NCBI GenBank assembly: GCA_964016885.1
Contig: OZ024743.1
Location: 370,140,001 to 370,204,000, forward strand
Direction: 5' to 3'
Length of the DNA: 64,000 nt
DNA from: Eledone cirrhosa
Taxonomy: Eukaryota
Shown: one piece after another, positions 1 through 58,056 of the stretch
Position numbering within the stretch: the first letter of the stretch is position 1
How the letters are laid out: every line of letters begins with the position of its first letter
The notes under the pieces: model-generated
What the model was told of the DNA's origin: nothing
The model's database searches: none
What the model saw: the letters and a program-made list of their open reading frames with translations, nothing else
Translations under genes and position numbers: made by a program

Positions 1-1125
1 TTATAACCTCGATCACCTTTGTATCGGCCTCGATGTCGGCGAGGATGGCAGCCATCAGCCTGGGAATTTCAATGGCCAGATGAACCTGGGTCACCCTTAC
101 TCTCACGAGACTATATTTTGGGACCAGTGTGAACTCATCATTTTTTTAGGGGAAACATGGAGTGCTCTCTGGCTTCCTGTGGGGTTCCAAAGAACACGTC
201 CACGGTCCCATATCTTTGTCCATGTCTGATGTGGGTTATTTAAGTCCACACATGTCGGCAAAGCTTTTTGGATCTGCGACTCGGGTGCCCACTCCACTTG
301 GCGTGTTTTTATATTAATCGTGCGGTATGATACATAACATAGCTCGTGATGCTGCATGGTATTTGATGGGGGCGCGGTGAGACTGAACCTGTAACCCTGG
401 CCTCATTCAGTTCTTCCTAGCTTACCTCAATGGTTTCGTTCTTGTTCGCCGATTTAGCAAAAGTCACATTTGGTTTTGCGCTGGTCTTTGTGTTGTTGTT
501 GTTATTCTTATTCTTGGTGTTGCTGCTGTTGCTGTTATTGTTACTTTATTATTATTATTTTTTGTTTAGTTGTTGCTGTGGTTGTGGTGGTGTCAGTGGC
601 GTTCGACTTGAGTGTCGTCATTGTGGGAGAATCCATTTTGATATCACGAGATAATTTTTTTGTTTCAGTTGTTTCACTTGTTGCTGTGGTGGTGGTGGTG
701 GTGGTATCAGTGGTGTTAGATGTACTCTTCCACATTGTGGTGGTGGAGATGGCAGCTTAAACACCTGTAGACATTGGCAAGGCGGGAAGTCTACGTCTGG
801 ACGTGTTAAACTTTGACGACATCTATTGCTGCTGACGCTGTTAGCGAAAACGTTATTGGTTTTATCAATTGTAACAAGGTTCACGATGGTGGTGCTGGGA
901 GTAGTGTTTATGGTAAAGCCGCTGTCACGTGACAGCTGGCTTGATTTGTGGAGGCGTATACCATCATGTTGTTTTTTAATTCTTTGTTTGGCAAAATAAG
1001 TTTTAAATTTTGGGCTCAAGGCCCCAATATTATTGAGTGTCCTTTTCAGAAAGCAATATATATGAACTTATAAACAGTTGACAACAATGAGCTCACGATG
1101 AAACGTTTTCCTACGCAAGTCTCCG
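1..1125 (-). mobile_element. 5' portion (5' UTR and frameshifted ORF1) of an L1/Tx1-like LINE that continues past the window start
   Basis: ORF 103-357 (CYVSYRTINIKTRQVEWAPESQIQKAL) is homologous to ORF1 of the 1167-7074 element (CTVSYRTINVKSRRVERASESQIQKAL). 5' UTR motifs are shared (1012-1050 vs 6911-6950). The 5' end abuts (AAT)n at 1126. Confidence 0.85.

Positions 1126-1166
<41 letters not shown>
1126..1166 (+). repeat. (AAT)n microsatellite joining two Tx1-like LINEs
   Basis: Perfect AAT run read directly. Confidence 0.97.
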
Positions 1167-1167
<1 letters not shown>

Positions 1168-1409
1168 TTTTCTTTATTAACCACAAGGGTTCACATAAAG
1201 TAGACATTAAGGACAGTACAGGACAATACAGGACGGTACAAATGGGCATTTCTGCGTGTAAAAAAACAGAAGTTGAAATAAAATAACAAAGAAAAATTCC
1301 CCAATAGGGGGGAGACTTCCAAGGGACATTTGTGGAGAAAGCCCATTAAAAGACCACAGTGGCCCTGACCACCAGGGCAAGTGCCCTCTCCCAGTTTTCC
1401 ACCTTTAAT

Positions 1410-4400
1410 TTACAGACACATACTCAGAGAAGGCCCATTCATTCGGGCCATACTTGCTTCTCTCACCCATCTTTCAACAAAATGCTGGGAGGAGAGCACT
1501 TCCCTCTCTACCCTGATTTTCCTTTTCAGATGAAATTTGAAAAAGTTAATCAGGGCATCACCTAAGAGGTAAGTGCTCGTCTTCAGCCCTTTCAAACGTG
1601 TCCACCATACTATCTCTTTCGCCATGGCCACCAGACAGATAAAAACTGCCTGCCCTTCCCGGCTAAAGGAAGAGGGCGGGGCAATCCTCACGATGGACTC
1701 AGCTGATAGCCGGATCCGTCCTACACGTGACAGCAGGTGTTCGACATAAACCCACAAGTCAGCAATGCTCGGACACTGGACGAGTGCGTGCAGGACGGTT
1801 TCGTCGCCCTGTGCGCATCTCGGACATGCCCGGCTGACGGCACCTCCATGCCTGTAAAGTTTATCCCTAACTGGCAAAGCACCCCGGTAGCACTGCCAGG
1901 CCAGGGATTTCTGGAAGTTGTCCATAGGCCCCGGCCCGAAAATCCTTCCGAAGAGATTGGCTAGTTGATTTTCGTCGACGCCTAGAGTTTCTCCAAGTAA
2001 TTCGTCGCTCTTCCCCTCCACTAATCCCCTATAGAACGCCAAGGTGGAGTTTCCACCGTTCACATTGCCCGATTGGTCGAGGGCTGTGAGCGCCTGAAGA
2101 CATTCCAGTCTCCAAGCGCTCCCCCTCGGTCTTCGCTTGACCCAGGACTGCAGCTCCGTCAAGGAGACGAGCTGGGGAAAAACGCGTCTAGCAAACGGCG
2201 ACCACACCTGATCACCGTCGAGGAAGAGGTGGAGATGTCGTAGCCTGAGCGCGTGTCTGCGCATCATCAGCCACGGCATGCCCAGCCCTCCACGTAGCGG
2301 GTGTTGACAGCAGACGGACCGCCTGACCATCGGAGCGCGTCCCTTCCACAAGAAGCGAAAGAGCAAACGCTCCAGCGCAGTCAGGCGGGGCTTAGGACAA
2401 GGTACGACGGTCAGGCGGTAGTAGATGACGGACGCGATGTACGCGTTAGCCACCTCCGCTCGACCTTTCAGGGATAGCTTCCTCTCGGCCCATTTCTGGG
2501 TGAGAGAAGCCACCCTGCTCGTCACCTCGTCCCAGTTTTTGTCCGTCTGGAGGTCTGGACGGAACCAGACCCCTAGCAATTTAACCGGTCCGTCCGTCCA
2601 GCGCCCGACGACGCTGTTGGACGGCATGGACCTGCCTCTCCAGGTGCCGAGCTGCAGGCCCACTGACTTTTCCTGGTTGATCATTGCTCCTGTCACCGCT
2701 TCGTATTCTCTTAGTGTAGTGCCGATCGCCTCGATGTGTTTGGCGTTCGACACCACTACGGTGACATCGTCGGCATATGCTGACACGGATCTTCCGCATC
2801 CTAGTTCGCGCGGGAGCCCCCTCAACGTCTCCAGTTTGTGCAGTAATGGCTCGAGAGTCAATACGTACAATAGGGACGAGAGGGGACGTCCTTGGCGGAC
2901 CGAGCGCATGATGTTGAACGGTTCCGAAAGGTGACCGTTCACTCTCACTACAGAGCAGATGTTGCTGTGCATGGCAGCGATCCAGCCTCTGAAGACGGGC
3001 CCAAAGCCAGCCGCCCTCAGGACTGCCGTTAGGTAGCGATGGTCGACCCTATCGAAGGCTTTCGACTGATCTAAATTGATCAAAGACCCACCCGTGCCAG
3101 GTTCCCTAACTACCCTCTCTACGATGTATCGCATGAGGTAGAGGTTGTCGTGGATGGATCTGTAGGGAATGGCGCATGTCTGTGCCTCTCCCACCAGACC
3201 ACCAACGACAAGCGCCAACCTCTTTGCTAGCACCTTGGCCAAAATCTTGAACTCTGTGTTTAGCAGAGTTATGGGCCTAAAATTATCTATGTTATCCCCC
3301 TTGTTCGGATCCTTTCTCAGCAGCGCCACCGCTCCTCGGCTCACAGAGCTGGGAATTCTCCCGTTCTGTTGCCAGTTGCAGTAGACGTCCGCCAAGAGGC
3401 CTCCGAACAAGTCTGGCATTTGTACGTAAAGTTCATAGGGTAGACCATCCAAACCAGGCGATTTACCCCTTGTGCAACTAGTCATTGCCTCCCGTACTTC
3501 AGCGATTGTTATCGGCTTTTCGCAACACTCCGCCTCAGTGGCCGAAAGCCGCGGCTGTCCGTCGAGGTAGACACTAAAGTCCATCCCTCGATCCGGCCCG
3601 CCACTGCCCCCGAACAGTTGAGCGAAGTGTCGCTGAAAAGCTTCACACATTTGCCCGGGATCGAGTAGCATGCGCCCGTCGTGGTCCACCAAAGACCGGA
3701 TCGTGGCTTTATTGCCCCGACGCGCCTCCGCCACTCGGGCCATTTGAACGGCTTTCGTCCACTCGTGTCTGAGAGCACGCACCCTAGCTCTGACAACGCA
3801 GCCTTCGTGCTTTGCATTGAAGAATTGGTCAAGGGCCAATTTCGCCACAAGTACGTCGGTCGCGATGCCTTTGCAAAGCGCCTCGTCTAATTTTCTAACT
3901 AATTCTCCCTCTGCTCTATTTTTCTCTATTGCTAAAGCCTTACTAAACCTAATGGACTATATTCTAATCGCTCTTTTCAGAGCAAACCACCATTTGTTGT
4001 TGGCGATGGCCCCCGTCAACGCCCGCTTAACTAGTTCGCTAATCCGGTCTCTGTAGGGCTTGCACGCTGGTAAGGACGCGTTTAGCTTCCAGTAGCCGGG
4101 TCCTCGTCTATGAAGCCTATCTAAGTCAAGCACACAGATCACGAATTTGTGGTCCGTGTAGCTGACTATCTTGAATTGTGGGCAGCCTATGCTAGACCTA
4201 TCTATTTCCCTACAAAATACTCTATCTAGATATGATCTGGATGACCCTATGCGATTTGTCCAAGTCCACATTGGCACATTCGGGAAATCCATTCGGTACC
4301 TGTCAGACAGTTCAAAACGTCTGAGCAGGTTGGTGAGACTCTTGCACCCTCCTTCCCTATCCACTAATACCACACAATCCCAGCGTGCATCTAAGATCCC

Positions 4401-4829
4401 GTTCCATTCGCCCACTAACACTAAAGAGCGGGACGTTCCAAGAAAGGTCTCCAGACGCCGCAAGAAATCAGGCCGCCCTGCTCCTGTCGGGGCATAGACG
4501 GCCACTAACCTGAAAGCTTGCCCGTCTCCGCTGGTCACGTCCAGCACCACCAGCTTACCTTCTGGGTCCAGGAAGATGGCCCGTATGGCAATATCCAAAC
4601 CTCTCCGAAAAAGCACAGCAACTCCTCCCCCCGATCCCGGACGTCTGGGAGATTCGTACACATCGTAGCCGCCGAAGATCGGTGCGAAAGCCCGTACTTC
4701 GGAGATTCTGGTCTCGCTGATGGCCACTACATCTATGTTTAGTGACCTGAGGTCGTTGAGCTGGTGGCCCTGCTTCCATGACGACCCCAAGCCACGCGCA
4801 TTTATGCTGCCTATTCTGAGTGAGGTCAT
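1410..4829 (-). pseudogene. ORF2: APE endonuclease, reverse transcriptase and C-terminal zinc finger, with one premature in-frame stop at 3957-3959
   Basis: APE motifs: GSINARGL, AISET, VYAP, YLDR, YTDH. RT motifs: GKSPGLDGLP, NFRPITLLN, LDQSKAFDRV, SVRQG, AYADD. C-terminus CPRC..ETVLHALVQC. ORFs 3957-4829 and 1410-3848 are in the same frame. Confidence 0.92.
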
Positions 4830-4863
4830 GTTGAAATGGAGTGGAAAAGATGGGAAAGACCAC

Positions 4864-6865
4864 TTACCTTACTTCTCGTAGGGGAAGGACGGTTTTTCCA
4901 TCCTTTTCACTGCTTGTGGCCTCCTCAGGAAGGATGTCCTTATAAATCCTCCTGGAGAGTGCTTGTCGGAAGTCTTCGATGTCTTTGGGGAATTTTTGTT
5001 TTAGTGTCATGTACGTTTTCTGTGATGCGAGTGATTTGTATGTGTGGAGATGGTGTGAATTTTTGGGTTGTTGTGTAGTCTTTTTCTGTGATGCTGGTGT
5101 TGTGTTGGATGTAGTGTAATAATTGCTTGTTGTTCAAATGTAATGCTGTGTAGTGTGTATCGTTTTGGTTGTTTTGTTTTGTTTGCGTTTGTTGTGGGTT
5201 TGTTTCTGTTTCGTATTTTGGTGACTTTTGTGGTGTAGGTGATGGTGGTGTTGGGGTTAATGATGGTGATGGTGTTGGTGTTTGGGTTGAGGGGGTTGGT
5301 GATGCTGGTGTGGATGGTGGCATATCTGTCCTAACTTTTTTGTTTGTTAATTTATTTGTTTCACTCTGTATTTTGTTTTTGGAGGGGGAAGGAAGAGAAT
5401 TTTTTCTTTTTTTGTTTCTTTTTTTCTTTTTTCCTGATACCGTTTCCCACTCGTCGTCACAATCTGTCTCCAGTTGTGATAGGCCGGGGAGTGGAAAATC
5501 CTCCACAGGCGTTAGTTTTGGTTGTGGCGCGGTGGATGGTGTAGGCGCTGGTGCTAGTTCTGAAGCGTTGGGTGGTGGTGGTGTTGGTTTTGCTGGTGGT
5601 GGTGGTGTTGGTTTTGCTACTGTTGCTGGGGTTGTTGCTGTTATAGTTGCTTCTGTTGTTGCTGCTACATTTGTTGCTGCCATCTCTGCTACTGGTGGTG
5701 TTGATGGTTGTGTCACTGGGGTGGGTAGGAGAGGTGGCCTCAACCTTTTAGCCTGAGGGCAGAAAGCCCTTAGGTGGGTTCCTTCACCACAAACGACACA
5801 CCTAGGCCTTCTGCCCTCGACAATTACGGTGAGGTGGCTGCCGTCAGTGAGGTCTATTACCTCTGGGATCTCCTCAATGCTTTTTTGGTCCGCTTGTATC
5901 AGGAGCTCCATCCCAGATCCGGACCAGTTCTCCTGCTTTTCTTTTGCTATTGCTATTATTTTTGTGTTGGCTTCGATGCCGGCGAGGACGGCTCTATTAG
6001 CCAGGGAATTTCGATGGCCGGTGGAACGTGGGTCACCCTGATCTTTACGAGTCTCTGGCCACAATAGCTTGGGACGAGTGTGAAGTCGTCACTTCTTAAT
6101 GGGGCCATGGAGTGTTCTCTAGCCTCCTCTGGTGTTTCAAAGAACACGTCCACGGTTCCATACTTCTGCCCACGTCTGATGTGGGTTTTTCTCGCCCACA
6201 CATGTCCCAAAGCTTTTTGGATTTGGGACTCGGATGCCCGTTCCACTCGGCGCGATTTTACATTTATTGTTCGATACGACACGGTGCATTGGCGCCGATG
6301 CTCCATTTTATTAGGTGGGGGGTGGGGCGAGGCTGACCCTGTATCCATCTTTCTTTACCATTTGTTTGGCATTTTCTAAATCCTCCTGAGTTACCGTAAA
6401 TGCTTCGAACTGTTTTGCTACTCTGGCAAAACTCAGGGTGGTTTTTTTAATGTCATTGTTGCTGTTGTTGCTGTTGTTGCTATCGTTATTTTTGTTATTA
6501 TTAATTTTAGTTTCAGTTGTGGTGGTGGTGACGTCAGTCGTCTTTGGTGGGGAAGAGTCCATTTTGCTTGATTTCATTTCGACATCACGAGTTAATTTAT
6601 TTTTTTCTTCTTTTGTTTCTGTTGTCGCGGTGGTGATGGGGGTGGTGGTTGTCGCGGTGGTGGTGGTGGTGGAGGCTTTAACACCTGCAGTCATTGGTAA
6701 TGGCGGGAAATGAATGTCTGCCTGAGACATATTTAAAATATTGCTACTGCTTATATCTTTTTTAGTGTTGGCAAACGTAGTAACATTTACAATGGTGGTG
6801 TCGGTGTGAGGTATTAATTTGTGAGAAAGGCTTTCAGCTGCTTGGTGCAGTGGTGAATTAGCCAT
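4864..6865 (-). pseudogene. ORF1 (gag-like CCHC knuckle, Thr/Pro-rich linkers), frameshifted
   Basis: Pieces 6311-6865, 5956-6348 and 4940-6064. Motif RPRCVVCGEGTHLRAFC (CX2CX4HX4C). Colinear with the continuous ORF 19683-21218. Confidence 0.85.
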
Positions 6866-7074
6866 TTTTTTTCAAAGAAATTTTTTGATAATCATAAACG
6901 TTTAAATTTTGGGCACAAGGCCCCAATCTTTTTGGGTGTCCTTTTCGGAAAACAATGTATGTGCGCTTATATATAGTTAACAATAAAAATTTTCCATAAA
7001 TGGCAATTTTTAACAAACGGAAATAACAAACCTTTGCGGAGCTCACGATGATACGATTTACTACGTAGGTCGCC

Positions 7075-7120
<46 letters not shown>
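7075..7120 (+). repeat. (AAT)n microsatellite between the Tx1 5' end and an R4/Dong 5' junction
   Basis: Perfect AAT run. Confidence 0.97.
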
Positions 7121-8261
7121 TGGGAATAATGGGAATTCTGAGATGGAATGTTGCTGAACAGAAAGAAATGGATAGGAAGACTAGGAAGCTATTGACTATC
7201 TACAACATGTACCACAAGAGGAGTGATGTCGATAGACTCTACCTAAGGAGATCTGAGGGTGGAAGAGGTCTTATCAGCATAGAGGACTGTGTTCAGATGG
7301 AGAAAAACAACCTATACAAATACGTGACCTATAGTAAGGAGCCAATGCTCAGAGCTGTACTGAAGGAGGGGACAGTAGGCCAGGGGATGTCCAGGGAGGA
7401 AATAACATCAAGGAGGAAGAGCAGCCTTAAGGGAAAACCCCTTCATAGTACCTTCTTTGAGAAAACTGAATTTAGAGATCCACAGACATGGAACTGGTTG
7501 AGAAGAGGAGACCTCAAAAAGGCTACAGAAGGAATGCTAATGGCTGCGCAGGAGCAGGCCCTCAAAACGAAGTGGTTGAAGCACCATATCTACATGGAGG
7601 AGGCCAGCCCACTGTGCAGGATCTGTGGAGAGAGAGAGGAGACTGTGGCTCACATTGTGTCCGAGTGTAAACACCTAGCCCAGACCCACTATAAGGGCTG
7701 GAGACACGATGTGATGGGCAGGGTGATCCACTGGCACCTGTGCAAAGTAAACAATCTACCACATTCTGAGAAATGGTATGAGCATAGGCCAGAGGCGGTG
7801 ATGGAGAACAATCAGGTGAAGGTGCTGTGGGATTTTAGGATACAGACGGACAAAAAACTGGAACACAATAGACCTGACCTGGTGGTTGTGGACAAAGAAA
7901 AAAGATCGTGCCTGATTGTGGATGTGGCCTGCCCGTTCGACACGAGAGTGCAAGAGAAGGAGAGGGAGAAAATTAACCGATACCAGGACCTAAAGTGGGA
8001 GGTGAAAAGGATTTGGAACTGCCATGAAGTCAAAGTGATCCCGATTGTCATAGGCGCACTGGGGACTATCTCCAAAAGTTTCCAGGGATGGTTAAAGAAA
8101 ATCGGCCCCTTCACGCTTTTTGGAACGCTTCAAAAGGCATGCTTGCTTGGAACAGCAAGAACCCTTCGATACGTCCTGAATATCTGAGGCTGCAGGTAGT
8201 GGCTTGATATTCAATCCAACGGACTTTCCAGTTAACCAACATCAATGACTGAGATTCAAGG
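7121..8261 (+). mobile_element. 5'-truncated R4/Dong-like LINE (family D1); open ORF 7120-8187 covering thumb, CCHC and RLE
   Basis: Motifs CRICGEREETVAHIVSEC, RHD, RPDLVVVD, IVDVACP, EKINRY (PD-(D/E)xK restriction-like endonuclease). Near-identical to 10397-11527. Followed by an (AAT/AAC)n tail at 8262-8314. Confidence 0.92.
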
Positions 8262-8314
8262 AATAACAATAACACTAATAATAATAATAATAACAATAAT
8301 AATAATAATAATAA

Positions 8315-8690: not shown

Positions 8691-8942
8691 GGTATCGACA
8701 TCACCACCACCACTATCTCAGTATCGCTACCGCCGCTATTCTCTCCCATTGCTTCCTGCTAGTTGCTGCCACCACATTATAGAATTCCTACTAAAAAAGA
8801 GGAAGGCATCAAAATATATAGATAGACTCAAAAGAAAAAAGAAAAAACAAACATCAAAACCAAAGCAGCACAGCAACAACAGCAAAAAAAGAGAAAAACA
8901 AACAGAGAAAAACAAAAACAAAAAAACGTAAAGAAAATAAGA

Positions 8943-11453: not shown

Positions 11454-11527
11454 GGCTGCAGGTAGTGGCTTGATATTCATTCCAACGGACTTTCCAGTTA
11501 ACTAACATCAATGACTGAGATTCAAGG
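9112..11527 (+). mobile_element. 5'-truncated R4/Dong-like LINE (family D1) with (AAT)n tail 11528-11600
   Basis: Homology to 22276-24647 begins at about 9112. 3' UTR nearly identical to that of 7121-8261. Confidence 0.92.
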
Positions 11528-11539
11528 AATAATAATAAC

Positions 11540-11600
<61 letters not shown>

Positions 11601-16356: not shown

Positions 16357-16405
<49 letters not shown>

Positions 16406-16406
<1 letters not shown>

Positions 16407-19400
16407 TTTTCTTTATTAACCACAAGGGTTTACATAAAGTAGACATTAAGGAGAGTACAGGACAATACAGGACGGTACAAATGGGCATTTATGCGTGTAA
16501 AAAAACAGAGGATGTAATAAAATGACAAAGAAAAATTCCCCAATAGGGGGGAGACGTCCGAGGGACATTTGTGGAGAAAGTCCATTAAAAGACCACAGTG
16601 ACACTGACCACCAGGGCAAGTGCCCTCTCCCAGTTTTCCAGCTTTAATTTACAGACACATACTCAGAGAAGTCCCATTCATTCGGGCCATACTTGCTTCT
16701 CTCACCCATCTTGCAACAAAATGCTGGGAAGAGAGCACTTCCCTCTCTACCCTGATTTTCCTTTTCAAATGAGGTAAGTGCTCGTCTTCAGCCCTTTCAA
16801 ACGTGTCCACCATACTATCTCTTTCGCCATGGCCACCAGACAGATAAAAACTGCCTGCCCTTCCCGGCTAAAGGAAGAGGGCGGGGCAATCCTCACGATG
16901 GACTCAGCTGATAGCTGGATCCGTCCTACACGTGACAGCAGGTGTTCGATATAAACCCACAAGTCAGCAATGCTCGGACACTGGACGAGTGCGTGCAGGA
17001 CGGTTTCGTCGCCCTGTGCGCATCTCGGACATGCCCGGCTGACGGCACCTCCATACCTGTAGAGTTTATCCCGAACTGGCAAAGCTCCCCGGTAGCACTG
17101 CCAGGCCAGGGATTTCTGGAAGTTGTCCATAGACCCCGGCCCGAAAGTCCTTCCAAAAAGATTGGCTAGTTGATTTTCGTCGACGCCTAGAGTTTCTCCA
17201 AGTACGTCGTCGCTCTTACCCTCCACTAATCCCCTATAGAACGCCAAGGTGGAGTTTCCACCGATCACATTGCCCGATTGGTCGAGGGCTGTGAGCGCCT
17301 GAAGACATTCCAGTCTCCAAGCGCTCCCTCTCGGTCTTCGCTTGACCCAGGACTGCAGCTCCGTCAAGGAGACGAGCTGGGGAAAAACGTGTCTAGCAAA
17401 CGGCGACCACACCTGATCACCGTCGAGGAAGAGGTGGAGATGTCGTAGCCTGAGCGCGTGTCTGCGCATCATCAGCCACTGCATGCCCAACCCCCCACGT
17501 AGCGGGTGTTGACAGCAGATGGACCGCCTGACCATCGGAGCGCGTCCCTTCCACAAGAAGCGAAAGAGCAAACGCTCCAGCGCAGTCAGGCGGGGCTTAG
17601 GACAAGGTACGATGGTCAGGCGGTAGTAGATGATGGACGCGATGTACGCGTTAGCCACCTCCGCTCGACCTTTCAGGGATAGCTTCCTCTCGGCCCATTT
17701 CTGGGTGAGAGAAGCCACCCTGCTCGTCACCTCGTCCCAGTTTTTGTCCGTCTGGAGGTCTGGACCGAACCAGATCCCTAGCAATTTAACCGGTCCGTCC
17801 GTCCAGCGCCCGACGACGCTGTTGGACAGCATGGACCTGCCTCTCCAGGTGCCGAGCTGCAGGCCCACTGACTTTTCTTGGTTGATCATTGCTCCTGTCA
17901 CCGCTTCGTATTCTCTTAGTGTAGTGCCGATCGCCTCGATGTGTTTGGCGTTCGACACCACTACGGTGACATCGTCGGCATATGCTGACACGGATCTTCC
18001 GCATCCTAGTTCACGCGGGACCCCCCTCAACGTCTCCAGTTTATGCAGTAATGGCTCGAGAGTCAATAAGTACAATAGGGACGAGAGGGGACATCCTTGG
18101 CGGACCGAGCGCATGATGTTGAACGGTTCCGAAAGGTGACCGTTCACTCTCACTACAGAGCAGATGTCGCTGTGCATGGCAGCGATCCAGCCTCTGAAGA
18201 CGGGCCCAAAGCCAGCCGCCCTCAGGACTGCCGCTAGGTAGCGATGGTCGACCCTATCGAAGGCTTTCGACTGATCTAAATTGATCAAAGACCCACCCGT
18301 TCCAGGTTCCCTAACTACCCTCTCTACGATGTATCGCATGAGGTGGAGGTTGTCGTGGATGGATCTGTAGGGAATGGCGCATGTCTGTGCCTCTCCCACC
18401 AGACCACCAACGACAAGCGCCAACCTCTTTGCTAGCACCTTGGCCAAAATCTTGAACTCTGTGTTTAGCAGAGTTATGGGCCTAAAATTATGTATGTTAT
18501 CCCCCTTGTTCGGATCCTTTCTCAGCAGCGCCACCGCTCCTCGGCTCACAGAGCTGGGAATTCTCCCGTTCTGTTGCCAGTTGCAGTAGACGTCCGCCAA
18601 GAGGCCTCCGAACAAGTCTGGCATTTGTACGTAAAGTTCAAAGGGCAGACCATCCAAACCAGGCGATTTACCCCTTGTGCAGCCAGTCATTGCCTCCCGT
18701 ACTTCAGCGGCTGTTATCGGCTTTTCGCAACACTCCGCCTCAGTGGCTGAGAGCCGCAGCAGTCTGTCGAGGTAGACACTAAAGTCCACCCATCGATCCG
18801 GCCCACCGCTGCCCCCGAACAGTTGAGCGAAGTGTCGCTGAAATGCTTCACACATTTGCCCGGGATCGAGTAGCATACGCTGAAAAGCTTCACACATTTG
18901 CCCGGGATCCAGGAGCCGGGTCTTCGTCTATGAAGCCTATCTAAGACAAGCACACAGATCACGAATTTGTGGTCCGTGTAGCTGACTATCTTGAATTGTG
19001 GACAGCCTATGCTAGACCTATCTATTTCCCTACAAAATATTCTATCTAGATATGATCTGGATGACCCTATGCGATTTGTCCAAGTCCACATTGGTACTTT
19101 CGGGAAATCCAATCGGTACCTGTCAGACAGTTCAAAACGCCTGAGCAGGTTGGTGAGACTCTTGCACCCTCCTCCCCTTTCCACTAATCCTACACAATCC
19201 CAGCGTGCATCTAAGATCCCGTTCCAGTCGCCCACTAACACTAAAGAGCGGGACGTTCCAAGAAAGGTCTCCAGACGCCGCAAGAAATCAGGCCGCCCTG
19301 CACCTGTCGAAGCATAGACGGCCACTAACCTGAAAGCTTGCCCATCTCCGCTGGTAACGTCCAGCACCACCAACTTACTTCTGGGTCCAGGAAGATGGCC

Positions 19401-21832
19401 CGTATGGCAAGATCCAAACATCTCCGAAAAAGCACAGCAACTCCACCCCCCGATCTCGGACGGCTGGGAGAGGCGTACACATCGTAGCCGCCGAAGATCG
19501 GTGCGAAGGCCCGTGCTTCGGAGATTCTGGTCTCGCTGATTGCCACCACATCTATGTTTAGTGACCTGAGGTCGTTGAGCAGGTGGCCCTGCTTCCATGA
19601 CGACCCCAAGCCACGCGCACATATGCTGCCTATTCTGAGTGAGGTCATGTTGAAATGGAGTGGAAAAGATGGGAAAGACCACTTACCTTACTTCTCGTAG
19701 AGGAAGGACGGTTTCTCCATCCTTTTCACTGCTTGTGGCCTCCTCAGGAAGGATGTCCTTATAAATCCTCCTGGAGAGTGCTTGTCGGAAGTCTCCGATG
19801 TCTTTGGGAAATTTGTGTTTTAGTGTCATGTACGTTTTCTGTGTGATACGAGTGATTTGTATGTGTGGAGGTGGTGTGAATTTTTGGGTTGTTGTGTAGT
19901 CCTTTTCTGTGATGCTGGTGTTGTGTTGGATGTAGTGTAATAATTGCTTGTTGTTCAAATTTAATGCTGTGTAGTGTGTATCGTTTTGGTTGTTTTGTTT
20001 TGTTTGCGTTTGTTGTGGGTTTGTTTCTGTTTCGCATTTTGGTGACTTTTGTGGTGTAGGTGATGGTGGTGTTGGGGTTAATGATGGTGATGGTGTTGGT
20101 GTTTGGGGTGGTGGGGTTGGTGATGCTGGTGTGGATGGTGGCATATCTGTCCTAACTTTTTTGTTTGTTAATTTATTTGTTTCCCTCTGTATTTTGTTTT
20201 TGGAGGGGGAAGGAAGAGAATTTTTTTCTTTTTTTGTTTCTTTTTTTCTTTTTTTCTTTTTTCCTGATACCGTTTCCCACTCCTCGTCGTCACAATCTGT
20301 CTCCAGTTGTGATAGGCCGAGGAGTGGAAAATCCTCCACAGGCGTTAGTTTTGGTTGTGGCGTGGTGGATGGTGTAGGCGCTGGTGCTAGTTCTGAAGCC
20401 GTAGGTGGTGGTGGTGGTGTTGGTTTTTCTACTGTTGCTGGGGTTGTTGCTGTTATAGTTGCTTCTGTTGTTGCTGCTACAGTTGTTGCTGCCATCTCTG
20501 CTACTGGTGGTGTTGATGCTTGAGTCACTGGGGTGGGTAGGAGACGTGGCCTCAACCTTTTAGCCTGAGGGCAGAAAGCCGTTAGGTGGGTTCCTTCACC
20601 ACAAACGACACACCTAGGCCTTCTGCCCTCGACAATTACGGTGAGATGGCTGCCGTCAGTAAGGTCTATTACCTCTGGGATCTCCTCAATGCTTTTTGGG
20701 TCCGCTTGGATCAGGAGCTCCATCCCAGATCCGGACCAGTTCTTCTGCTTTTCTTTTGCTATTGCTATTATCTTGGTGTTGGCTTCGATGCAGGTGAGGA
20801 CGGCCGCTATTAGCCAAGGAATTTCGATGGCCGGTGGAACGTGGGTCACCCTGATCTTTACGAGTCTCTGGCCACAATAGCTTGGGACGAGTGTGAAGTC
20901 GTCACTTCTTAATGGGGCCATGGAGTGTTCTCTAGCCTCCTCTGGTGTTTCAAAGAACACGTCCACGGTTCCATACTTCTGCCCACGTCTGATGTGGGTT
21001 TTTCCTGCCCACACATGTCCCAAAGCTTTTTGGATTTGGGACGCCCGTTCCACTCGGCGCGATTTTACATTAATTGTTCGATACGACACGGTGCATAGGC
21101 GCCGATGCTCCATTTTATTAGGTGGGGGAGGGGGGGGGGGGCTGACCCTGTACCCATCTTTCTTTACCATTTTTTGGCATTTTCTAATTCCTCCTGAGTT
21201 ACCTGAAATGCTTCGCACTGTTTTGCTACGCTGGCAAAATTCAGGGTGTTTTTTTTAATGTCACTGTTGCTGTTGTTGTTATCGTTATTTTTGTTATTAT
21301 TAATTTTAGTTTCAGTTGTGGTGGTGGTGACGTCAGTGGTGTTCGGTGTGGAATAGTTCATTTTGGTTGAATTCATTTCGATATCACGAGTTAATTTTTT
21401 TTTCTTTTGTTTCTGTTGTCGCTGTGGATGTGGTGGGGGTGGCGGCTTTAACACCTGCAGTCATTGGTAATGGCGGGAAATGAATGTCTGCCTGAGACAA
21501 ATTTAAAATATTACTACTGCTTATATTTTTAGTGTTGGCAAACTTAGTAATATTTACAATGGTGGTGTCGGTGTGAGGTGTTAGTTTGTGAGGAAGGTGT
21601 GAATCAGAGTCGTCCATGATTTTTCAAAGAAAAATCTTTGTTTGATAATTATAAAAGTTTAAATTTTGGGCTCAAGGCCCCAATCTTTTTGAGTGTCCTT
21701 TTCAGAAAACAATGTATGTGCACTTATATACAGTTAACAATAAAAATTTTCCATAAATGGCAATTTGAAACAACTGAAAATAACAAACCTTTGCGGAGCT
21801 CACAATAATACGATTTACTACGTAGGTCGCCC
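16406..21832 (-). mobile_element. L1/Tx1-like LINE (family A, copy 2) with both ends intact and an internal deletion in ORF2
   Basis: Near-identical to 1167-7074. ORF1 19683-21617; ORF2 16649-19648. Lacks the segment equivalent to about 3662-4088. Flanked by (AAT)n 16357-16405 and 21833-21858. Confidence 0.93.
19683..21218 (-). CDS. Tx1-like ORF1 core (CCHC knuckle); N-terminal part frameshifted
   Basis: 511-aa frame with RPRCVVCGEGTHLTAFC, basic KKKKRKK patch and Pro/Thr-rich tracts. Confidence 0.8.
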   Translation of the reverse strand: MRSISGNSGGIRKCQKMVKKDGYRVSPPPPPPPNKMEHRRLCTVSYRTINVKSRRVERASQIQKALGHVWAGKTHIRRGQKYGTVDVFFETPEEAREHSMAPLRSDDFTLVPSYCGQRLVKIRVTHVPPAIEIPWLIAAVLTCIEANTKIIAIAKEKQKNWSGSGMELLIQADPKSIEEIPEVIDLTDGSHLTVIVEGRRPRCVVCGEGTHLTAFCPQAKRLRPRLLPTPVTQASTPPVAEMAATTVAATTEATITATTPATVEKPTPPPPPTASELAPAPTPSTTPQPKLTPVEDFPLLGLSQLETDCDDEEWETVSGKKKKRKKETKKEKNSLPSPSKNKIQRETNKLTNKKVRTDMPPSTPASPTPPPQTPTPSPSLTPTPPSPTPQKSPKCETETNPQQTQTKQNNQNDTHYTALNLNNKQLLHYIQHNTSITEKDYTTTQKFTPPPHIQITRITQKTYMTLKHKFPKDIGDFRQALSRRIYKDILPEEATSSEKDGETVLPLREVR

Positions 21833-21858
21833 ATAATAATAATAATAATAATAATAAT

Positions 21859-24647: not shown

Positions 24648-24670
24648 AACAATAATAAAAATAATATTAT

Positions 24671-24882
24671 GATTTCTTATATAGGCACAAGGCCAACATT
24701 TTGGGGGTGGGGAAAGTCGTTTAAATCGAACCCATTGCGTGACTGGTACTTTATTTTATCGACCCCGTAAGGATGAAAGGCAAAGTTAACCTCGGCGGGA
24801 TTTGAACTCAGAATGGCAAGGGCCGTAACTCTATGCGTCAAAGCATGGCGTCCACCCCTCTATCGATACTGCCAATTCACGG
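24671..24882 (-). mobile_element. tRNA-headed SINE (CORE-type, octopus-like)
   Basis: B box GAGTTCAAATCC (24798-24809, minus), then GCCTTTCATCCTT..GGGGTCGATAAAATAAAGTACCAGT; tail GGCCTTGTGCC..AGAAATCA plus TTA-like repeat. Relatives at 47231, 54760 and 56750. Confidence 0.8.
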
Positions 24883-24895
24883 TAATAATAATAAT

Positions 24896-25647
24896 CGTTT
24901 CTTTATTGGCCACAAGGGCTAACATGAAGAAAACCATTACAGACGGCACAGAACAGTACAGGACGATACAAAGTGGGTTATGGCCGTGTAAACCACCACC
25001 TGTTGTTGACGATCGCACCCGTCAACGCACGCTTAACTAATTCGCTAATCCGGTCTCTGTAAGCTTTTCGCGCCGGGAACGACGCCTTCAGCTTCCAATA
25101 GCCGGGCCCTTGCCTAAGTAGTCTTTCTAAGTCACAGATCACAAATTTGTGGTCCGTGTAATCGACTACTTTAAATTGTGGACAACCTACACTAGCCTTA
25201 TCTGTTTCCCTACAGAATACCCTATCTAAACACGGTCTGGCTGACTCGATGTGATTTGCCCATGTTCACATTGGCACATTTGGATAATCCAGTCTATACC
25301 TGTCAGACAGTTCAAAACGTCTGAGCTGGTTCTTGAGGATTTTACACCCTCCTCTGTCCCACATAATCCCAGCGTGCATTTTAAGATACCATTCCAGTCG
25401 CTTACTAACACTAAAAAGCGGGACGTTCCCAGAGAGGTCTCTAGACGTCTGAAAAGATCTGGCCGTTCTGCCCCTGCTGGGGCCTAGACGGCTACTAGCC
25501 TGAAAGCATTGCCTTCGCTGCCGGCCACGTCCAGCACCACCGACTTACCTTCTGGGTCCAGGAAGATGTCCCGTATGTCGAGATCCAAGCCTCTCCGAAA
25601 AAGCACAGCAACTCCGCCTAACGTTCCTGGACGGCTAGCAGACGTGT
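24896..25647 (-). mobile_element. Internally deleted, 5'-truncated Tx1-like LINE (APE fragment fused to the last ~95 nt of the 3' UTR)
   Basis: 24896-24990 matches the 3' end at 58057-58150. 24990-25647 matches the APE region (GGVAVLFRRGLDLDIRDIFLDPEGK). Short TAA tracts on both sides. Confidence 0.85.
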
Positions 25648-25656
25648 ATAATAATA

Positions 25657-28600
25657 CGTTTCCTTTATTGAGCACAGGGGCCTACATATAAGGGACAATA
25701 CAATAGACAGGGACAGTGGGGTTTACAATAAGTTTAGTCAAAATATATATATAAAACAATAAGAATGGTCAAAAGAATTGCCACAATAAAGATTCCCGAT
25801 TAGGGGGAGAACCACACGGGGGCGACTCAAGTACCCCACCAATCCTGAACCAACCGACGTTCCGAGAGCCCCCAAGCAAAACACTCCTCTTCAAATCAGC
25901 CAGAGTACAGGTGTACTATGATTAGGTCCATTTACACGGGTTATTCTCGCAACATTCATCCACCTTTTAATAAATGCACTTGGAGGAGAACTTACCTCTC
26001 CACCCTCACCTTCCTTTCCAGGTGAAACTTCAAAACCTTGATGAGCAATTGGCTGAAGAGAAAAGTGTCTGCCTTCAGGTTTTCAACCTCATTTGCCACA
26101 CAACCGCTTTCACTGAAAGAGAAACACTTCCTTCCCTTCACAGCTGAAAGAAGGCGGCTTGGCAATCTTCACTATGTACTCGGTTGATAGCCGGATCCGT
26201 CCCACACGCGATAACAGCTGTTCGACATAATTCCACAAGTCAGTAATGCACAGACATTGGATGAGTGTCTGCAGAAAAGTTTCGTCGGTCTGCACGCATC
26301 TCAGGCAGGTGCATCTGAGCACACATCAATGTCTGTAGAGTTTATCTAAAACCGGCAGACCTCCCACCCACCTTGTAGCACTGCCAAACGAGTGATTTCT
26401 GAAAGTTGTACATAGTCCCCCGATTGAATGTCGTCCAGAACAGGCTAGTCAGTTCGATTTTGTTGACACCCAGACCTTATCCAACAGTGCAGTAGCACAA
26501 TCGCACAACCAATTCTCCATAAAATTTCCACTGACCGCATTGCCCGCCTGGTAGAGGGCAGTGATCACCGGGCAACATTCCAGATGCCAGGTGCCCAATC
26601 TAGGTCTCATCTTGACTTAGGTCCTAAGCTCAGTCAAAGAGACGAGTTGAGGAAAGGTGTGTCTCACAAACGGTGACCACACCTATTCACCGTTTAAGAA
26701 AGTCTGAAGATCCCGAAGCGTCAGTGTATGTTTGCGCAATCATCTGCCATGGCATGCCCATCCCTCCGCGTAGAGGGTGCTGGCATCAGATGGTCCGTCT
26801 CACCAATGGAACCAGTTCCTTCCACAAAAAGTTGAAGAGCAGGTATTCCAATATGGTATGGTATGAACGGGGTAAAGGCACAAGGGACGCGATGTACGCG
26901 TTCGCTACCTCCGCCCGCCCATTAAGGGATAGCTTCCTCCCGGTCCATTTCTGAGTGAGAATAGCCTCGTTTCCTTGTCCCACTTTTATCCACCAGATCT
27001 GGTTCGAACCAAATCCCAAGCAACTTCACCGGTCCGTTCGTCCAGCAGCCGACTACATTGTTCAACGGCATGTATTTTCCTCTCCAGGTACCGAGATGCA
27101 AATCCACTGTCTTTTCCAGGTTCAGTTTTGCTCTCGTCAACTTTTCATATTCTCCTAAGAAGGTGCCGACCACCTTGATTCCCGAGGCGTTCGACACTAT
27201 CACAGTGATATCACCCGCATATACCGACACAGCCCTTCCATGTCCTGGTTCGAACGGGGGGTGCCCTGCTCCAGCTTCCACAGTAATGGCTGGAGAATCA
27301 ATACCTACAAAAGACAGGAGAGAGGGTACCATTGACGGACTGATCGCGTGATCTGAAATAGTTCCGAAATGTGGCCATTTGCTTCGACCAACTAGTAGAT
27401 GTCGCTGTACATTGCAGTGATCCAGTTTTGAAGACGGGATCAAAGCCAACTGCCTTCAGGACAGCCTTCAGGTATGGATGGTCGACCCTAATGTAAGCTC
27501 TTTCTGTTGATCTAAATTGATTTAGGTCCAACAAAGCCAGGTTTACACCACACCCTCTCTATGATATATCGCATGAGGTAGAGTTTGTCGTGTATGGACC
27601 TAATCGAGATTGCGCATGTTTGCACCTCCCCTCCAATCTCTTCGCTAACACCTTCGCTAACACCTTCACCAAAATCTTAAACATTGTTTAGAAGAGTTAT
27701 GGGTTTGAAATTGTCTAGCGTATGCCTTTTGTTCTCGTCTTTCCGCATCAGCATTATAACGCACCGGCTCAAAGAACTGGGAATACTACCGTTCTGCTGT
27801 CAGTTGCAGTAGAGCGCTTCGGGGAGATCGGAGAACAAGTCTGGCATATCTACGTAAAGCACGTAGGGAGATCATCCAAACGGGTGACTTGCGCCTTGTG
27901 CAACCAACTAGGGCACCCAGAATCTCGTCTGAAGTTATCGGCCTTTCGCAGCGCTCACCATCGGCTCTCGTGAGATGCGGTAGGCCCTCGAATTAGGGAC
28001 AGAAGTCCACCAACGCCTCTGACTCCCCGCTCATCCCGAACAGTTTAGTGAATTGCTGGCGAAAGGCCTTATACATCTGCCTGGAATCGTTCAGCTCGCG
28101 TTCGTCTCGGTGCATCAAAGACCGAATTGTGGTTTTGTTACCACGCGGGCCCATCGAACAGCTTTCATTCTCTCTTTTTTTAGAGCACCTGCCTTAACTC
28201 TGTCAATCAAATCTTCGTGTTATGCATTGAGAAATGGTCTAATGCCATTCTCACTGCAAGCGCGTCAGTTGTAATGCCACTACTAATAACCACGTCTAAT
28301 TTAGCACCCCCTCCTTTCTATTTTTCTCTAAGCCTACTTCGTTATTAAAACCTATCGACATTACTCAAATCTCTCCTTTGAGAGCCCCACACCCATTTGT
28401 TGTTGACGACCTCCCTTGTCAACTTTTTCTTAACTAAATTGTTGACCTGGTCCCTGCAGACGTCACGTGCCGAGAACGACATGTTCAGTTTCAAACAAAC
28501 AGGTCCTTACCTGAGTGTCTTATCGTGATCGACCACGCAGATCACAAACGTGGGGCCTGAATAGGCGACCGTTTGGATATGTAGGTAACCTATGCCATCC

Positions 28601-31138
28601 TTATTTATAGACCTAATAAAAGACCTATCTATATACGATTAAGATGACACTATGTGGTTGGTCCAGGTCTACACTGACGCATTAGGGAAATCTTGTCGGT
28701 ACCTGTCAGACAGTTGGAACTGGCTTATCAGCATTCCCTGCTCCTATCAGCTACTCCCACACAACCCCAGCGTACGTCTACGATGCCATTCCAGTCGCCT
28801 GCTAAGAGTAAAGAGTGGGACCTTCTCAGAGAGGCTTCCAGAAGCCTAAAGAAAATCCGGGCATCCAGTCCCGGTCGAGGCGTAGACAAGCCACCAGTCT
28901 AAAGGCACCACCTTTGCTATTGCTCACGTCCGGGACCACCAGCTTACCTTCCGGATCCAGGAAGCTCGACCTTACCTCGAGATACAGGCCTTTTCTAATC
29001 AGCACTGGCACCCCACCTCCCATTCTCGGCCGATTAAGAGATGCGAAGGTATGATAGTCGTCAAAAAATTGTGGGGCAGTGCGCGCATGTCGGAAATCCT
29101 GGTCTTGCTGACAGCAGTCACACCCATATCTAGTGACCTGGGTCGTTCAGAAGGTGATCCTGCTTCCAGCACGTCCCTAGGTTACGAATATCCAACATTC
29201 AAACATTCCACTTTTAAGAGGGTCCTGTTGGCCGGTTGAATTGAGAGAGGAAAGGTCTACTTACCTCCCGGGGGCTTGTGGAGGTCAGATGTTTCCACTC
29301 CCGTATTCGGTGGAGTTTCTTTTGAAAACCCCTTAAGCAGTCTGCTTTCTGATCTTATATTCGGGGTTCCCACGTCTCGAGGATGCTGTTCCTAATCCCC
29401 TTGTCGAGTGACATTGTGTTTATTGTAGGTGTAGTGTTTGTGATTTCAGATGTTTGTGTGTTCTTTTGTTCTTGCGTTTGTTTTGGTTGTTTGCGTTTGG
29501 GGGGTTGTGGTGGTGTGGTGGTGTGGTGGAGTTGTTTGTTGTTGTTATGGAGCTGTTTATGTTTGTGTGTTAAGTTTGCATTTTCTGTTGTGGGTTTTGT
29601 GTGATGGGTAGAGTTTTTTGTGTGCCTTCTCTATTGTTTTTTTTTGTTTTTTGTTCTTTTGGCAGTTTTGCCTCGCCTACGCTACTGGATTTGTGTCTGT
29701 GTTTGTATTTGCGTTTGTGTCAATGTGTATATGGGGGATGGAGCTTTCTTTGTCTTTCCTCTGGATCTTCATCGTTGGTAGTGGCGTTTTCGCTAGTGTT
29801 GCTGCTGGTGTTGGTAGTAGTCCCCACTCCGGCGTCGGCAGTATTGGAGGATTTCGACACCTTGCCTTTTTTTAGCTGAGAGCAAAAGGCTCGCGTTGTT
29901 TCTCGGCAGACGAAACAGTGCGGCTCTCTGATCTCAGTCATTATTTGCAGTACCATCCCGTTTTGGAAACGGGCGTAGGCCAGGATTTTATTAGGTCTTC
30001 TGGCCTGCTTTGGAGATACTTCAAATTAACATAGGACCAATTCACCCTGGCTGTTCTTGTTGCTGCTATCGGGACGGCATCTGTCTCCTCCACAATCACG
30101 CATCCCAGGAGCAGCCACAAGTCCCTTCTTGGTGGAATACTTGGAATGGGACTGGAACTGTTCTTTTTCCCACGTGGGTGGGGTACATTATGACCTTGCT
30201 GGTTTTGTAAGGGGTCACCAAGTGTTTCACAGCAGGGGCCTCTGACTTAAACAACACCGAGATGGTACCATAATGTCCACCCCTCGCTATGAACTCGATG
30301 TCACCTCTGATGCATTTCAGCGCAGCTACAATTTCGCCTTGCGGATTGGTGGCAGCTTTGTGTCTGCACTAAAATGCATCTAAATGTTACCATTCTCCTT
30401 TCCAGTGCTTCTGTGTCCTCTGTCGGGATGGTTAAGTTGTCTCATGTTTGCTCTTGTTTAATGCTTCTATACCTGGGCCAACTTTTTGTCCTTTTCACTA
30501 AGTACTATGCTAAAGCTTGGCCTGTTTTTTTGTGTTTTCTTTTTTCTTTTTACTGCAGCAGCGAAAGGTTTATTTTTCTTTGTTCGCTGTGCTGTTGCTG
30601 TGAAATCGTTGTTGTTTTTGTTCTCCTTCGAGTTATTCTTGTTTTTGTTGTGTTGTTGTGGTGCAGTTGGTGTTGTTTTGGTCGCTGTTGCAGCTGGTGT
30701 TGATGTTGTTGCTTTCACTTTTTACCTTTTTGCTGTTGTTTTTAGTGCTGTCTTTTTCTATGTTGTTGTTGGTGGTGTTACTAATATCGTTGTTGGTATT
30801 GTTATTGTCTGTTGTACTGTTAGTAGTTACATTATTCATAATGGGGGTGCTGATGGGGACGGTGCTTTTACTCTCAACATTTAAGTCGTTGTCAAACGAC
30901 AGCAGATAGACTCAACGTTGGAAGGGGACGTGGCTCCACCATGTTTTTTGAAGAAAAGAAATCTAACAAAAAATAATGTTCAAATGTTTGAGCCCAGAGG
31001 CCCAAATATTATGGGGTCGCCTTTACACAGGCTAATTATACAGTTCGTGAAAAATATTCAACAAATTCCACTTTGAAACAATTCAAAATAACCAACTTTC
31101 TGGAGCCGATGTGAACACGTCTATCGCAAACGTGCACC
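25657..31138 (-). mobile_element. Full-length but heavily decayed L1/Tx1-like LINE (family B)
   Basis: Remnants AVSVYAGDITVIVS, RKLSLNGRAEVANAYIAS, FLDPEGKLVV, EPHCFVCRETTRAFC. 3' end AATAAAGGAAACG plus TATTATTAT. Degenerate TAA 31139-31165 at the 5' end. Confidence 0.85.
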
Positions 31139-33139: not shown

Positions 33140-36455
<3,316 letters not shown>

Positions 36456-36461
<6 letters not shown>

Positions 36462-38262: not shown

Positions 38263-39379
<1,117 letters not shown>

Positions 39380-46420: not shown

Positions 46421-47230
46421 ATTATTCAGTTTTCGTTAGTGTAATGAATAAATTAATAAGAACCCGAAACCGTTTACAATAGTGTTTTACTCAACGGTCA
46501 ACTTATTTCAGTTGGTAGATCCTGTGGTAGTTCGACTATAGGTTCCAAGTGTAAAAATTTATGGAGTATATATAGAAATTTACAAAATTATTATTTAAAA
46601 CATCACATTCCAGAAGAGTGAGAATAACATTTATAACATAACACTGACACCTGCTTCATCGTATGTGTTGCATATCAGTCTGAAAACACTAATATTTGAT
46701 TATTTCAATCAAATTAAATCGAATCCATCTACTTAAAAAATCATATGTAGATACAACAAATGTTTAACGTGGAATAACTTTTTTCACACATAGAGACACA
46801 GAGGCAAGCAAAAATTAAAGGAAAAAGAACAAGGAAAAAAGGAAAAGAGAAACAAGAAAATAAGAACAAAAAAAGAAGAGAGGAAAAAAGAAGAGAGAGA
46901 ACGTGATAAAGAAAAGGAAAAGGGAGACGAAGAATTACATGAAAGAATGGATAGGTTGAGATACATCGAGAATAGTATTTTAGACAGAAAGACATAAGTA
47001 GAGGAAGAACAATGAAGAATTTAAGAGGGTGAAAGAGATGGAAGAGGAAGGAAAGGGTAAGATAGGTGTAGATAAATTAATACAGATAAGTGTAGGGAAG
47101 GGTGGGAACTGTATGGCTTGTATTCGGGGAATAGTAAATGACAAGTGGATTCAGTTCTACAAAATATCTGGACCATTATTGCCTGAAAATGTACACATTC
47201 ATGACAACAGCCATTATATGGTTCAATTGG

Positions 47231-47405
47231 ATTGGCAGTACCTGTAGAGGGTCTGACGCCATGCTTTGCAGCAAAGAGTTACGGCCCTTTGTGGTCTGAG
47301 TTCAAATCCCGCCGAGGTTTCATCCTTACATGGTCGATAAAATAAAGTACCAGTAATACACTGGGATAATTGCTGGTCTTGTGCCAAAAGTAGAAACAAT
47401 TATAT
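47231..47405 (+). mobile_element. tRNA-headed SINE, same family as 24671-24882
   Basis: GAGTTCAAATCCCGCCGAGG..GGTCGATAAAATAAAGTACCAGT; tail TGGTCTTGTGCCA. Confidence 0.8.
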
Positions 47406-54755: not shown

Positions 54756-54759
54756 GTCG

Positions 54760-57467: not shown

Positions 57468-58056
57468 GAAAGAGATCGGCTGTGTTCAGTCAGACATGGA
57501 GAAGGAATAGGTTCCGATAGGTTTAAAATGCGCCACCCAGAAATAAGACTCCTTATTCATAAAAGGATACCCTAAATAAACAAGTCAGGTGATTATATAA
57601 AATGTTTAAGTTCAGTGGTTACCGCAATGCATGAATGGAAACAATACATAAAAAGCATAGTGTAAAAAAATAACATGATATAGGATATTTATTTGTTTCG
57701 TAATAAAGAATAAAAAATACCCATCCTGCTTAGATAGAAATACATATTGGCAATATCAGATTATATATTACTTGACTCGTTTATGCGTAATGAAAATATA
57801 TTTTCTATTCATTTATAACTTAGGAATATGATAAGGTCTAAAGAAATACACAACACAAAGGTACCCGAATAATAGCAAATATTCCGATTTATAATAACTG
57901 ACGAATTATATGTCTTACAACCCCAATTTTGTTCATTAACCTCAGATGTATGGATCTTTTTATGTTTAAAAGGCGAATTGGCAGAATCGTCAGAGCATAT
58001 AATAAAATGTAGGGCATGGGATTGGCGGAATTGTTAGTAATAATAATAAAAATAAT

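Follow-up and report, generated by a model that had tools for sequence, protein, structure and literature searches.

A tail-like cassette in the leaders of octopus L1/Tx1-group LINEs, a candidate second site for ORF2p

Why should a stem-loop of the kind found at the 3' end of a long interspersed nuclear element (LINE) occur again in the leader of the same element, shortly before its first open reading frame (ORF)? The question is raised by a 64,000-nt stretch of Eledone cirrhosa DNA (contig OZ024743.1, positions 370,140,001 to 370,204,000; hereafter the window), the minus strand of which holds six copies of L1/Tx1-group LINEs, here called A0, A1, A2, B, C and Cs. An earlier note on this DNA had listed ten stem-loop strings near the ends of these copies, and all ten are present on the minus strand where it had placed them. 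In families A and B the leader holds a cassette of ~40 nt with the anatomy and spacing of a tail; its stem covaries across tails and leaders, and its sequence is conserved above silent sites. From a comparison of these sites, we tentatively favor the view that the cassette was captured as a tail and kept as a second, weaker site for the ORF2 protein (ORF2p).

Hairpins and cassettes in tails and leaders

The 3' hairpins claimed for A1, A2, Cs and C are predicted to fold, with pair probabilities of 0.78-0.97. Each is the tip of an irregular stem of ~47 nt that also pairs AAUAAA and the first UUA, and the folding z-scores of the 3' ends tested (A1, Cs and C) range from -2.0 to -2.6. For the 3' hairpin of B, claimed along with the others, no fold is predicted (z = +0.70). 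Two-sided changes occur at 5 of 18 stem pairs among the five LINE tails. The proposal that this is a 3' stem-loop of the type known from stringent LINEs stands: its stem covaries, and it is common to tails of short interspersed nuclear elements (SINEs). Among the variants listed at 1180-1217 in runs X1 and X4, in a table limited by contig ends and repeats, none reaches 3%.

The layout common to leaders, LINE tails and SINE tails consists of a hairpin, 7-8 A-rich nt, AAAC or a close variant, and TTA repeats or a remnant of them (Table 1); AAUAAA is missing at that place in both leaders and SINE tails. In A1, 45 nt separate the leader hairpin from the ORF1 ATG. Folded within whole leaders, the GGGC/GCCC hairpin has a probability of 0.64 in A0, 0.26 in A1 and 0.22 in A2, values that shift with the folded window, and the B hairpin has a pair probability of 0.72-0.97. 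The 5' hairpins described earlier were recovered in A0, A1, A2 and B. Two details needed correction: the site in C (63877-63889) forms two of its four pairs and has no predicted fold, and the "6-nt loop" of the B leader includes a closing C-G pair, the structure being a UCUG tetraloop on an 8-bp stem. As A0, A1 and A2 are one family, only two families, rather than five sites, count as independent 5' cases; the motif is missing from the third family as far as the C leader lies in the window. Of 20,000 shuffled leaders, 0.15-0.43% contained a 4-bp stem capped by a CTTG(T/A) loop. The C leader has a UUCG hairpin instead, the base of which is 49 nt before the ATG, the A and B hairpins lying 44-50 nt before theirs.

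Two SINEs in the window end in hairpins of the same kind, both of them additions to the earlier list. SINE1 shares its TTA tract and its polarity with B and Cs. SINE2 stops directly after hairpin, spacer and AAAC, at the cassette end, and is flanked by a 15-bp target duplication with one mismatch (47213-47227 and 47399-47413). A cassette descriptor gave 12 matches in the window, comprising all five LINE tails, both SINE tails, four of five leaders and one stray, as compared to 0.065 per shuffled window. In local alignments the A leaders resembled the SINE tails in six of six comparisons (p = 0.0005-0.008) and the family-A tail more weakly (p = 0.027, 0.10 and 0.40). The B leader matched the B tail at p = 0.0005, SINE1 at 0.003 and the other three LINE tails tested at 0.11-0.39, and SINE1 matched four LINE tails at 0.0005-0.001. 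The co-evolution of the two ends proposed earlier is therefore seen in B, where the leader is closest to its own tail and both ends have C-Y-C-U-G loops and GCUC arms. It is not seen in A, whose leader resembles its own tail no more than it resembles others, and C is discordant.

The likeness ends at the cassette limits. Leader bodies did not align with the bodies of their own 3' untranslated regions (UTRs; p = 0.47 in A1, 0.55 in A2 and 0.60 in B). Descent of the leader from a duplicate of the whole 3' UTR was rejected (own-family p = 0.29-0.76, with an exception of 0.03 in B that is due to the cassette), as was descent from a duplicated SINE body (p = 0.33-0.94). A few scores against the 3' UTRs of other families (p = 0.003-0.03) were taken as AT-rich matches.

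Further copies of the cassette were seen in contigs of run X4, the organism of which is a different one. The leader is spanned by one contig, in which the fifth loop base is U and the TTA remnant is an intact (TTA)3. In two further contigs the match to the cassette has 4 differences over 34-35 nt, and one of these two runs upstream into 14 letters, 13 of them matching SINE2. A metagenome scan for relatives returned 55 loci, nearly all at ~21-45% identity and none with the cassette; this says little, because many of the 55 lack a complete leader or tail. No relatives were found in the viral and genome collections.

Table 1. Features of the LINE copies, their leaders and tails, and the two SINEs (positions in the window)
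Feature	Position	Strand	Remarks
A1 leader cassette	6888..6923	-	hairpin 6911-6923, A-rich spacer 6904-6910, AAAC 6900-6903, TTA remnant 6888-6897
A0 leader cassette	990..1024	-	hairpin 1012-1024, CUUGA loop
A2 leader cassette	21645..21680	-	hairpin 21668-21680, CUUGA loop
Competing upstream hairpin, A leader	6917..6943	-	AAGG/CCUU + CYCAA/UUGGG; mutually exclusive with cassette hairpin
Family-B leader cassette	30968..31006	-	8-bp hairpin 30987-31006, UCUG tetraloop, spacer, GAAC, ATTATT
Family-C leader	63900..63965	-	UUCG hairpin 63900-63925, upstream hairpin 63933-63965; no tail-type cassette
A1 3'-terminal stem	1163..1209	-	tip AACC-CUUGU-GGUU at 1179-1191, AAUAAA buried; by folding
A2 3'-terminal stem	16402..16448	-	tip 16418-16430; by folding
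Cs 3'-terminal stem	24891..24940	-	tip 24909-24919; by folding
Family-C 3'-terminal stem	58052..58101	-	tip 58070-58080; by folding
Family-B 3' end	25655..25682	-	GGC-CCCUGU-GCU, AAUAAA, AAAC; weak fold
SINE1	24672..24881	-	A-box- and B-box-like head; tail hairpin GGC-CUUGU-GCC at 24684-24694, no AAUAAA
SINE2	47228..47398	+	B box; tail hairpin 47374-47386
A1, full-length family-A LINE	1126..7075	-	ORFs broken; APE, RT, zf-RVT
A1 ORF1 ATG	6864-6866	-	
A1 ORF2	1410-4868	-	one internal stop
A1 (TTA)n tail	1126-1166	-	
A0, 5' part only	5' end at 1126	-	5' end inside A1's tail
A2, family-A LINE	16357-21833	-	
B, family-B LINE	25648-31140	-	
Cs, short C-type copy	24883-25648	-	internally deleted

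Covariance models, covariation and constraint

A covariance model of the LINE tails placed three leader sites, that of B first, among its 15 non-training matches (E = 0.25-2.8), and a model of the leaders only had tails as six of its top eight non-training matches (E = 0.29-1.9). TTA repeats contribute to the latter scores. In a short tail-only model, built on six tails (four from LINEs, two from SINEs) stripped of their TTA repeats, the A leaders came first, fourth and fifth of 11 non-tail matches (12.6-17.8 bits, E = 0.1-2.8). When nine sites were aligned, three of four stem pairs were found to change on both sides, giving a score of 0.68 that none of 500 shuffles reached, and slid controls gave 0.19 or less; B was left out of this alignment because its loop shifts register. 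Covariance models had been suggested as a check on the idea of related ends, and in them the leaders rank high and the stems covary across tails and leaders, with no significant leader match.

Between A and B, the cassette is identical at 24 of 28 positions, as compared to 156 of 283 four-fold sites (p = 6e-4), and the earlier claim of a related leader copy, which proves to be constrained, is supported for these two families. Variation within family A was read from ~1000 raw reads of one run, in which the fifth loop base is A in 382 of 984; A makes up 55% of the contig depth in the leader. The other read variants listed are a change of a loop base in the competing hairpin (112/1028) and a C/T change that preserves a pair of that hairpin (329/1041). 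None of those listed falls in the GGGC/GCCC arms or in CUUG, and listed variable positions number 3 of 41 in the core vs 11 of 42 just upstream (p = 0.04). Run X8 gave no record on the leader, and X5 and X11 gave two records each on 960-1300 and none on the leader.

Other features of the leaders were also recorded. The family-C leader folds unusually strongly at 63893-63972 on the minus strand (z = -4.77, 0 of 200 shuffles), into two adjacent hairpins, and the hairpin motif recurs in it as three loose repeats, as though by duplication. The A0 leader lacks ~51 nt of A1 and A2 (1089-1087, minus strand) and keeps its 5' end and cassette. In A1, a change in the TTA remnant (6892-6894, minus strand) makes an upstream ATG with a 7-codon frame that is absent in A0, A2 and most reads. 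A switch between the two A-leader hairpins is energetically possible but was rejected: it shows no two-sided change (a gap displaced one helix by one alignment column), and the upstream arm, at 13/20 identical (p = 0.26), does not exceed silent sites in conservation. The idea that the leader holds an HDV-like ribozyme was likewise discarded, having no Rfam support; Rfam gave no match at gathering level in the window and only matches with E of at least 2 over the A1 leader.

What the leader cassette may do

How a tail could have come to lie in a leader, and what it might do there, can be proposed as follows. LINEs and SINEs of this kind insert into one another's (TTA)n tails, so that a tail often lies directly upstream of a LINE start. 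An ancestor may have taken such an upstream tail into its leader, where AAUAAA would need to be absent, avoiding early cleavage. The SINE is the likely partner of the LINE, and its tails appear to be copied by the LINE enzyme. Since these SINE tails have the cassette form, ORF2p would be expected on the leader copy as well. By analogy with the 5' motif of R2, its most likely job would be to keep ORF2p bound at the end of the RNA away from the tail until it is displaced by reverse transcription; complete insertions would thereby be favored. A second candidate job would be the damping of ORF1 translation. Initiation block by bound proteins is strongest near the cap, and the leader site is ~150 nt in. 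The donor may have been a SINE tail or the tail of another LINE family, or the SINE may instead have taken its tail from the leader. A more ambitious version is doubtful: that ORF2p reads the same signal at both ends, that the leader site co-evolves with the tail, that the competing hairpin acts as a switch, that removal of ORF2p licenses full-length completion and that an abundant SINE may have taken its tail from the leader.

Several observations weigh against a second ORF2p site. No single cross-match of any model is significant (E 0.1-2.8), only the ranks being enriched; the B leader is missing from the list of the short tail-only model; and the cassette descriptor is post hoc, drafted once the leaders were known. 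The nine-site covariation count rests on about four lineages, and among the leaders alone no pair changes on both sides. In the leaders of A1 and A2 the cassette hairpin does not predominate, and the long lower stem of the LINE tails has no counterpart in the leader. Family C, which by ORF2 is closer to A than B is (82% vs 70%), lacks the cassette. The fifth loop base varies in the leader yet is U in seven of seven window tails. Another, upstream leader block is equally conserved between A and B (56 of 70 identical), which means that the cassette is not alone in being constrained. Lastly, the SINE-like contigs of run X4 probably represent just the closest matches from a large SINE family.

Some of these points would fit equally a captured tail that now works without ORF2p, and this reading, the main rival, is almost as plausible. 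The hairpin, ~45-50 nt before the ORF1 start, would tune translation, or the cassette would belong to the internal promoter at the DNA level, and the likeness of the loops would be history. Family C, where a hairpin of high stability (z = -4.77) and with a generic UUCG loop persists at a similar distance, agrees with this, as do the stable tetraloop hairpin of B, the freedom of the fifth loop base in A and a constraint that extends over the whole leader; recruitment of new 5' UTRs is known for L1 (PMC5381506, as far as the portion consulted goes). Harder to reconcile with it are the preservation of spacer length, AAAC and TTA remnant in two families, A and B, whose four-fold sites are only 55% identical, and the B leader, whose best LINE-tail match is the B tail. 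The A hairpin, weak and competed, would also be a poor structural element if it lacked a ligand. Were this reading true, the locus would still be a clear case of a LINE leader built from a captured tail.

Convergence by chance or composition is unlikely. A GC-rich hairpin followed by A/T-rich sequence would resemble a tail in any AT-rich leader, and a loose loop-plus-stem pattern does occur in 16-35% of shuffled leaders, but the strict pattern occurs in 0.4% or fewer. The weak match of the A leader to its own tail (p = 0.027, 0.10 and 0.40), the lack of significance in the model cross-matches and the post hoc descriptor leave room for chance; the reciprocal sites near the top in three models, the SINE-like contigs matched at ~89% over 35 nt and the agreement of all six A-leader comparisons with SINE tails (p = 0.0005-0.008) do not.

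It is also improbable that the leader moves alone, as a promoter plus tail in the manner of LP-SINEs, with ORF2p priming at the internal UUA remnant and inserting the first ~190 nt. All the parts that mark the end of SINE2 are present in the cassette, and short elements headed by LINE sequence are known in molluscs, as described in the part of PMC4758252 drawn on here. Since the leader contains T runs and lacks a B box, a mobile leader would be a unit of RNA polymerase II, which accords with the idea. Stand-alone leader insertions, suggested by the earlier note, were found neither in the window nor among the loose contig ends listed. In run X1, 56 of 1091 contigs fit in part, and two listed loose ends just past the cassette continue as LINE leader, although contigs cannot show absence. 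A depth collapse at 6905 in run X24, with hundreds of unrelated loose ends, mimics stand-alone leaders and was set aside as a restriction artifact, because the read-end peaks at 6905, 6988/6991 and 7005/7008 sit on the AATT sites of a library for restriction-site-associated DNA sequencing (RAD-seq).

Bridging of the RNA ends by base pairing of the two hairpins, another earlier suggestion, is very improbable: the CUUGU and CUUGW loops are of identical type, not complementary, and so cannot pair, and the leader-tail duplex is no better than in shuffles, which pair as well or better in 50% (A1), 84% (A2) and 19% (C) of cases, with B at the edge of the shuffle range (5.3%). Bridging through a protein belongs to the proposal of a second ORF2p site, not to this rival.

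A second ORF2p site, if that is what the cassette is, would bear on how APE-type LINEs finish their 5' junction and how they shift an RNA from translation to template. The natural variants (a U or A loop in A, altered loops in B and loss in C), together with the SINE tails as a natural positive control, make the two-site model testable.

The elements, their neighborhood and known systems

The ORF2 products have an N-terminal APE domain (PF03372), a reverse transcriptase (PF00078) and a C-terminal zf-RVT zinc-binding domain (PF13966) by Pfam. Their nearest solved relative is human L1 ORF2p (E = 4e-115), and the best match with a named protein is from Argonauta hians (68%). ORF2 identity to A1 is 97% in A2, 82% in C and 70% in B. 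No named Tx1 reference was present among the protein and structure matches; the Tx1 label of the earlier note agrees with the L1-Tx1 elements, 80 families of them, reported in Octopus vulgaris in the part of PMC13282606 consulted. ORF1 has no Pfam match. Its look-alikes in Atlas are CCHC proteins and proteins with ZCCHC3-type RNA-binding domains (0.90-0.93), and a CX2CX4HX4C motif is visible; in the copy at 19686-21254 (minus strand) the middle of ORF1 resembles such a domain plus a CCHC knuckle. The ORF1 N-termini diverge strongly between copies, and an inverted repeat of ~25 bp lies within the C ORF1 region (63254-63315).

Insertion is target-specific for (TTA)n within the window: five of five 3' ends enter TTA repeats, and four of four full-length 5' ends follow them. 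Four of the five copies with a 5' end in the window are full-length, which speaks for an R2-like role of the leader cassette, albeit in a small sample; the 5' end of family C is beyond the window. Cs begins, by 5' truncation, within the endonuclease region and resumes after its deletion in the final ~100 nt of the 3' UTR; the junction shows a brief T-rich microhomology. The C 3' UTR has an AT-rich 18-bp stem (58155-58227, minus strand) that family A lacks. In run X4 the summed contig depth, which is not a copy number, is ~1.4 million over the last 90 nt of A1 (1176-1265) vs ~500 directly upstream, and this terminal segment is probably common to a far more abundant family, or to many families.

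Other elements share the window. On the plus strand, a second LINE type (7131-8314, 8826-11600 and 22277-24669), which we take to be Dong/R4-like, has a reverse transcriptase with a C-terminal nuclease motif of the PD..D type, and a more distant relative of it lies at 12992-16201. It sits in the TAA/TTA tracts that the L1/Tx1-group copies occupy, but in the reverse orientation, and two clades thus share one microsatellite from opposite sides. Two older SINE-like relics, at 54752-54906 (plus strand) and 56707-56865 (minus strand), have different, pyrimidine-rich tails and no cassette. Direct and inverted duplications at 35463-39393 and 40996-41586, with weak reverse transcriptase and GIY-YIG matches below Pfam cut-offs, are possibly Penelope-like remains.

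The searched literature, which had most subscription papers and Repbase outside it, describes neither a stem-loop of the tail type in the leader of a LINE nor the present octopus motif; looking for the motif itself yielded 17 listings, all unrelated, and a supplement of PMC13282606 gave no motif match. To our knowledge, a 5' protein-binding motif in a LINE is known only from R2. In the R2 element R2Bm, as described in the part of PMC6895275 available to us, protein binds motifs at both ends of the RNA, and the 5' motif, stripped off by reverse transcription, gates second-strand cleavage. The elements studied here would likewise have structured RNA at both ends. They are not R2-type members, which have a single ORF and a restriction-like endonuclease, having two ORFs and an APE endonuclease; this leaves the idea that they work like R2 unaffected. 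Binding is established for R2Bm, whereas here it is putative and the 5' site resembles the 3' site.

Stringent 3' stem-loops and SINE-LINE tail pairs have been described for ZfL2-1, ZfL2-2, UnaL2 and a monocot L1 lineage (PMC4176376, PMC3747384, both consulted in part). Our elements share with these a short 3' stem-loop with a conserved loop and a variable, compensated stem, a microsatellite tail and a SINE that carries the same signal. They differ in having a leader copy too, the signal being described at the 3' end only in the sections of those papers used, and in belonging to the L1/Tx1 group, whereas the zebrafish and eel stringent LINEs are of the L2 clade. Human L1 ORF2p grips a template stem-loop before the single-stranded tail, which helps set the start of copying; its contacts are largely not sequence-specific, its tail is poly(A), and no internal second site is described in the portion of that account cited (PMC10830416).

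Foreign sequence at LINE 5' ends has parallels as well, each taken from part of its source. Crocodilian Tx1 families with U1/U2-derived heads and SINEU, and Kibi and Koshi, which target microsatellites (PMC4494074), resemble the present elements in taking foreign RNA into their 5' ends, in a target common with short elements and in tandem insertion; their shared head is at the extreme 5' end, whereas here a tail lies ~150 nt inside the leader and the target is (TTA)n. In the LP-SINEs of molluscs (PMC4758252) a LINE 5' end is likewise joined to a tail, but these are free copies with target duplications, of which none was found here in the window or among the listed loose ends. HeT-A and TART (PMC5537684) also form head-to-tail arrays, with 3' sequence recurring close to the 5' end; the TART repeats are termed perfect, whereas in the octopus elements only ~40 nt are alike, far from a long terminal repeat.

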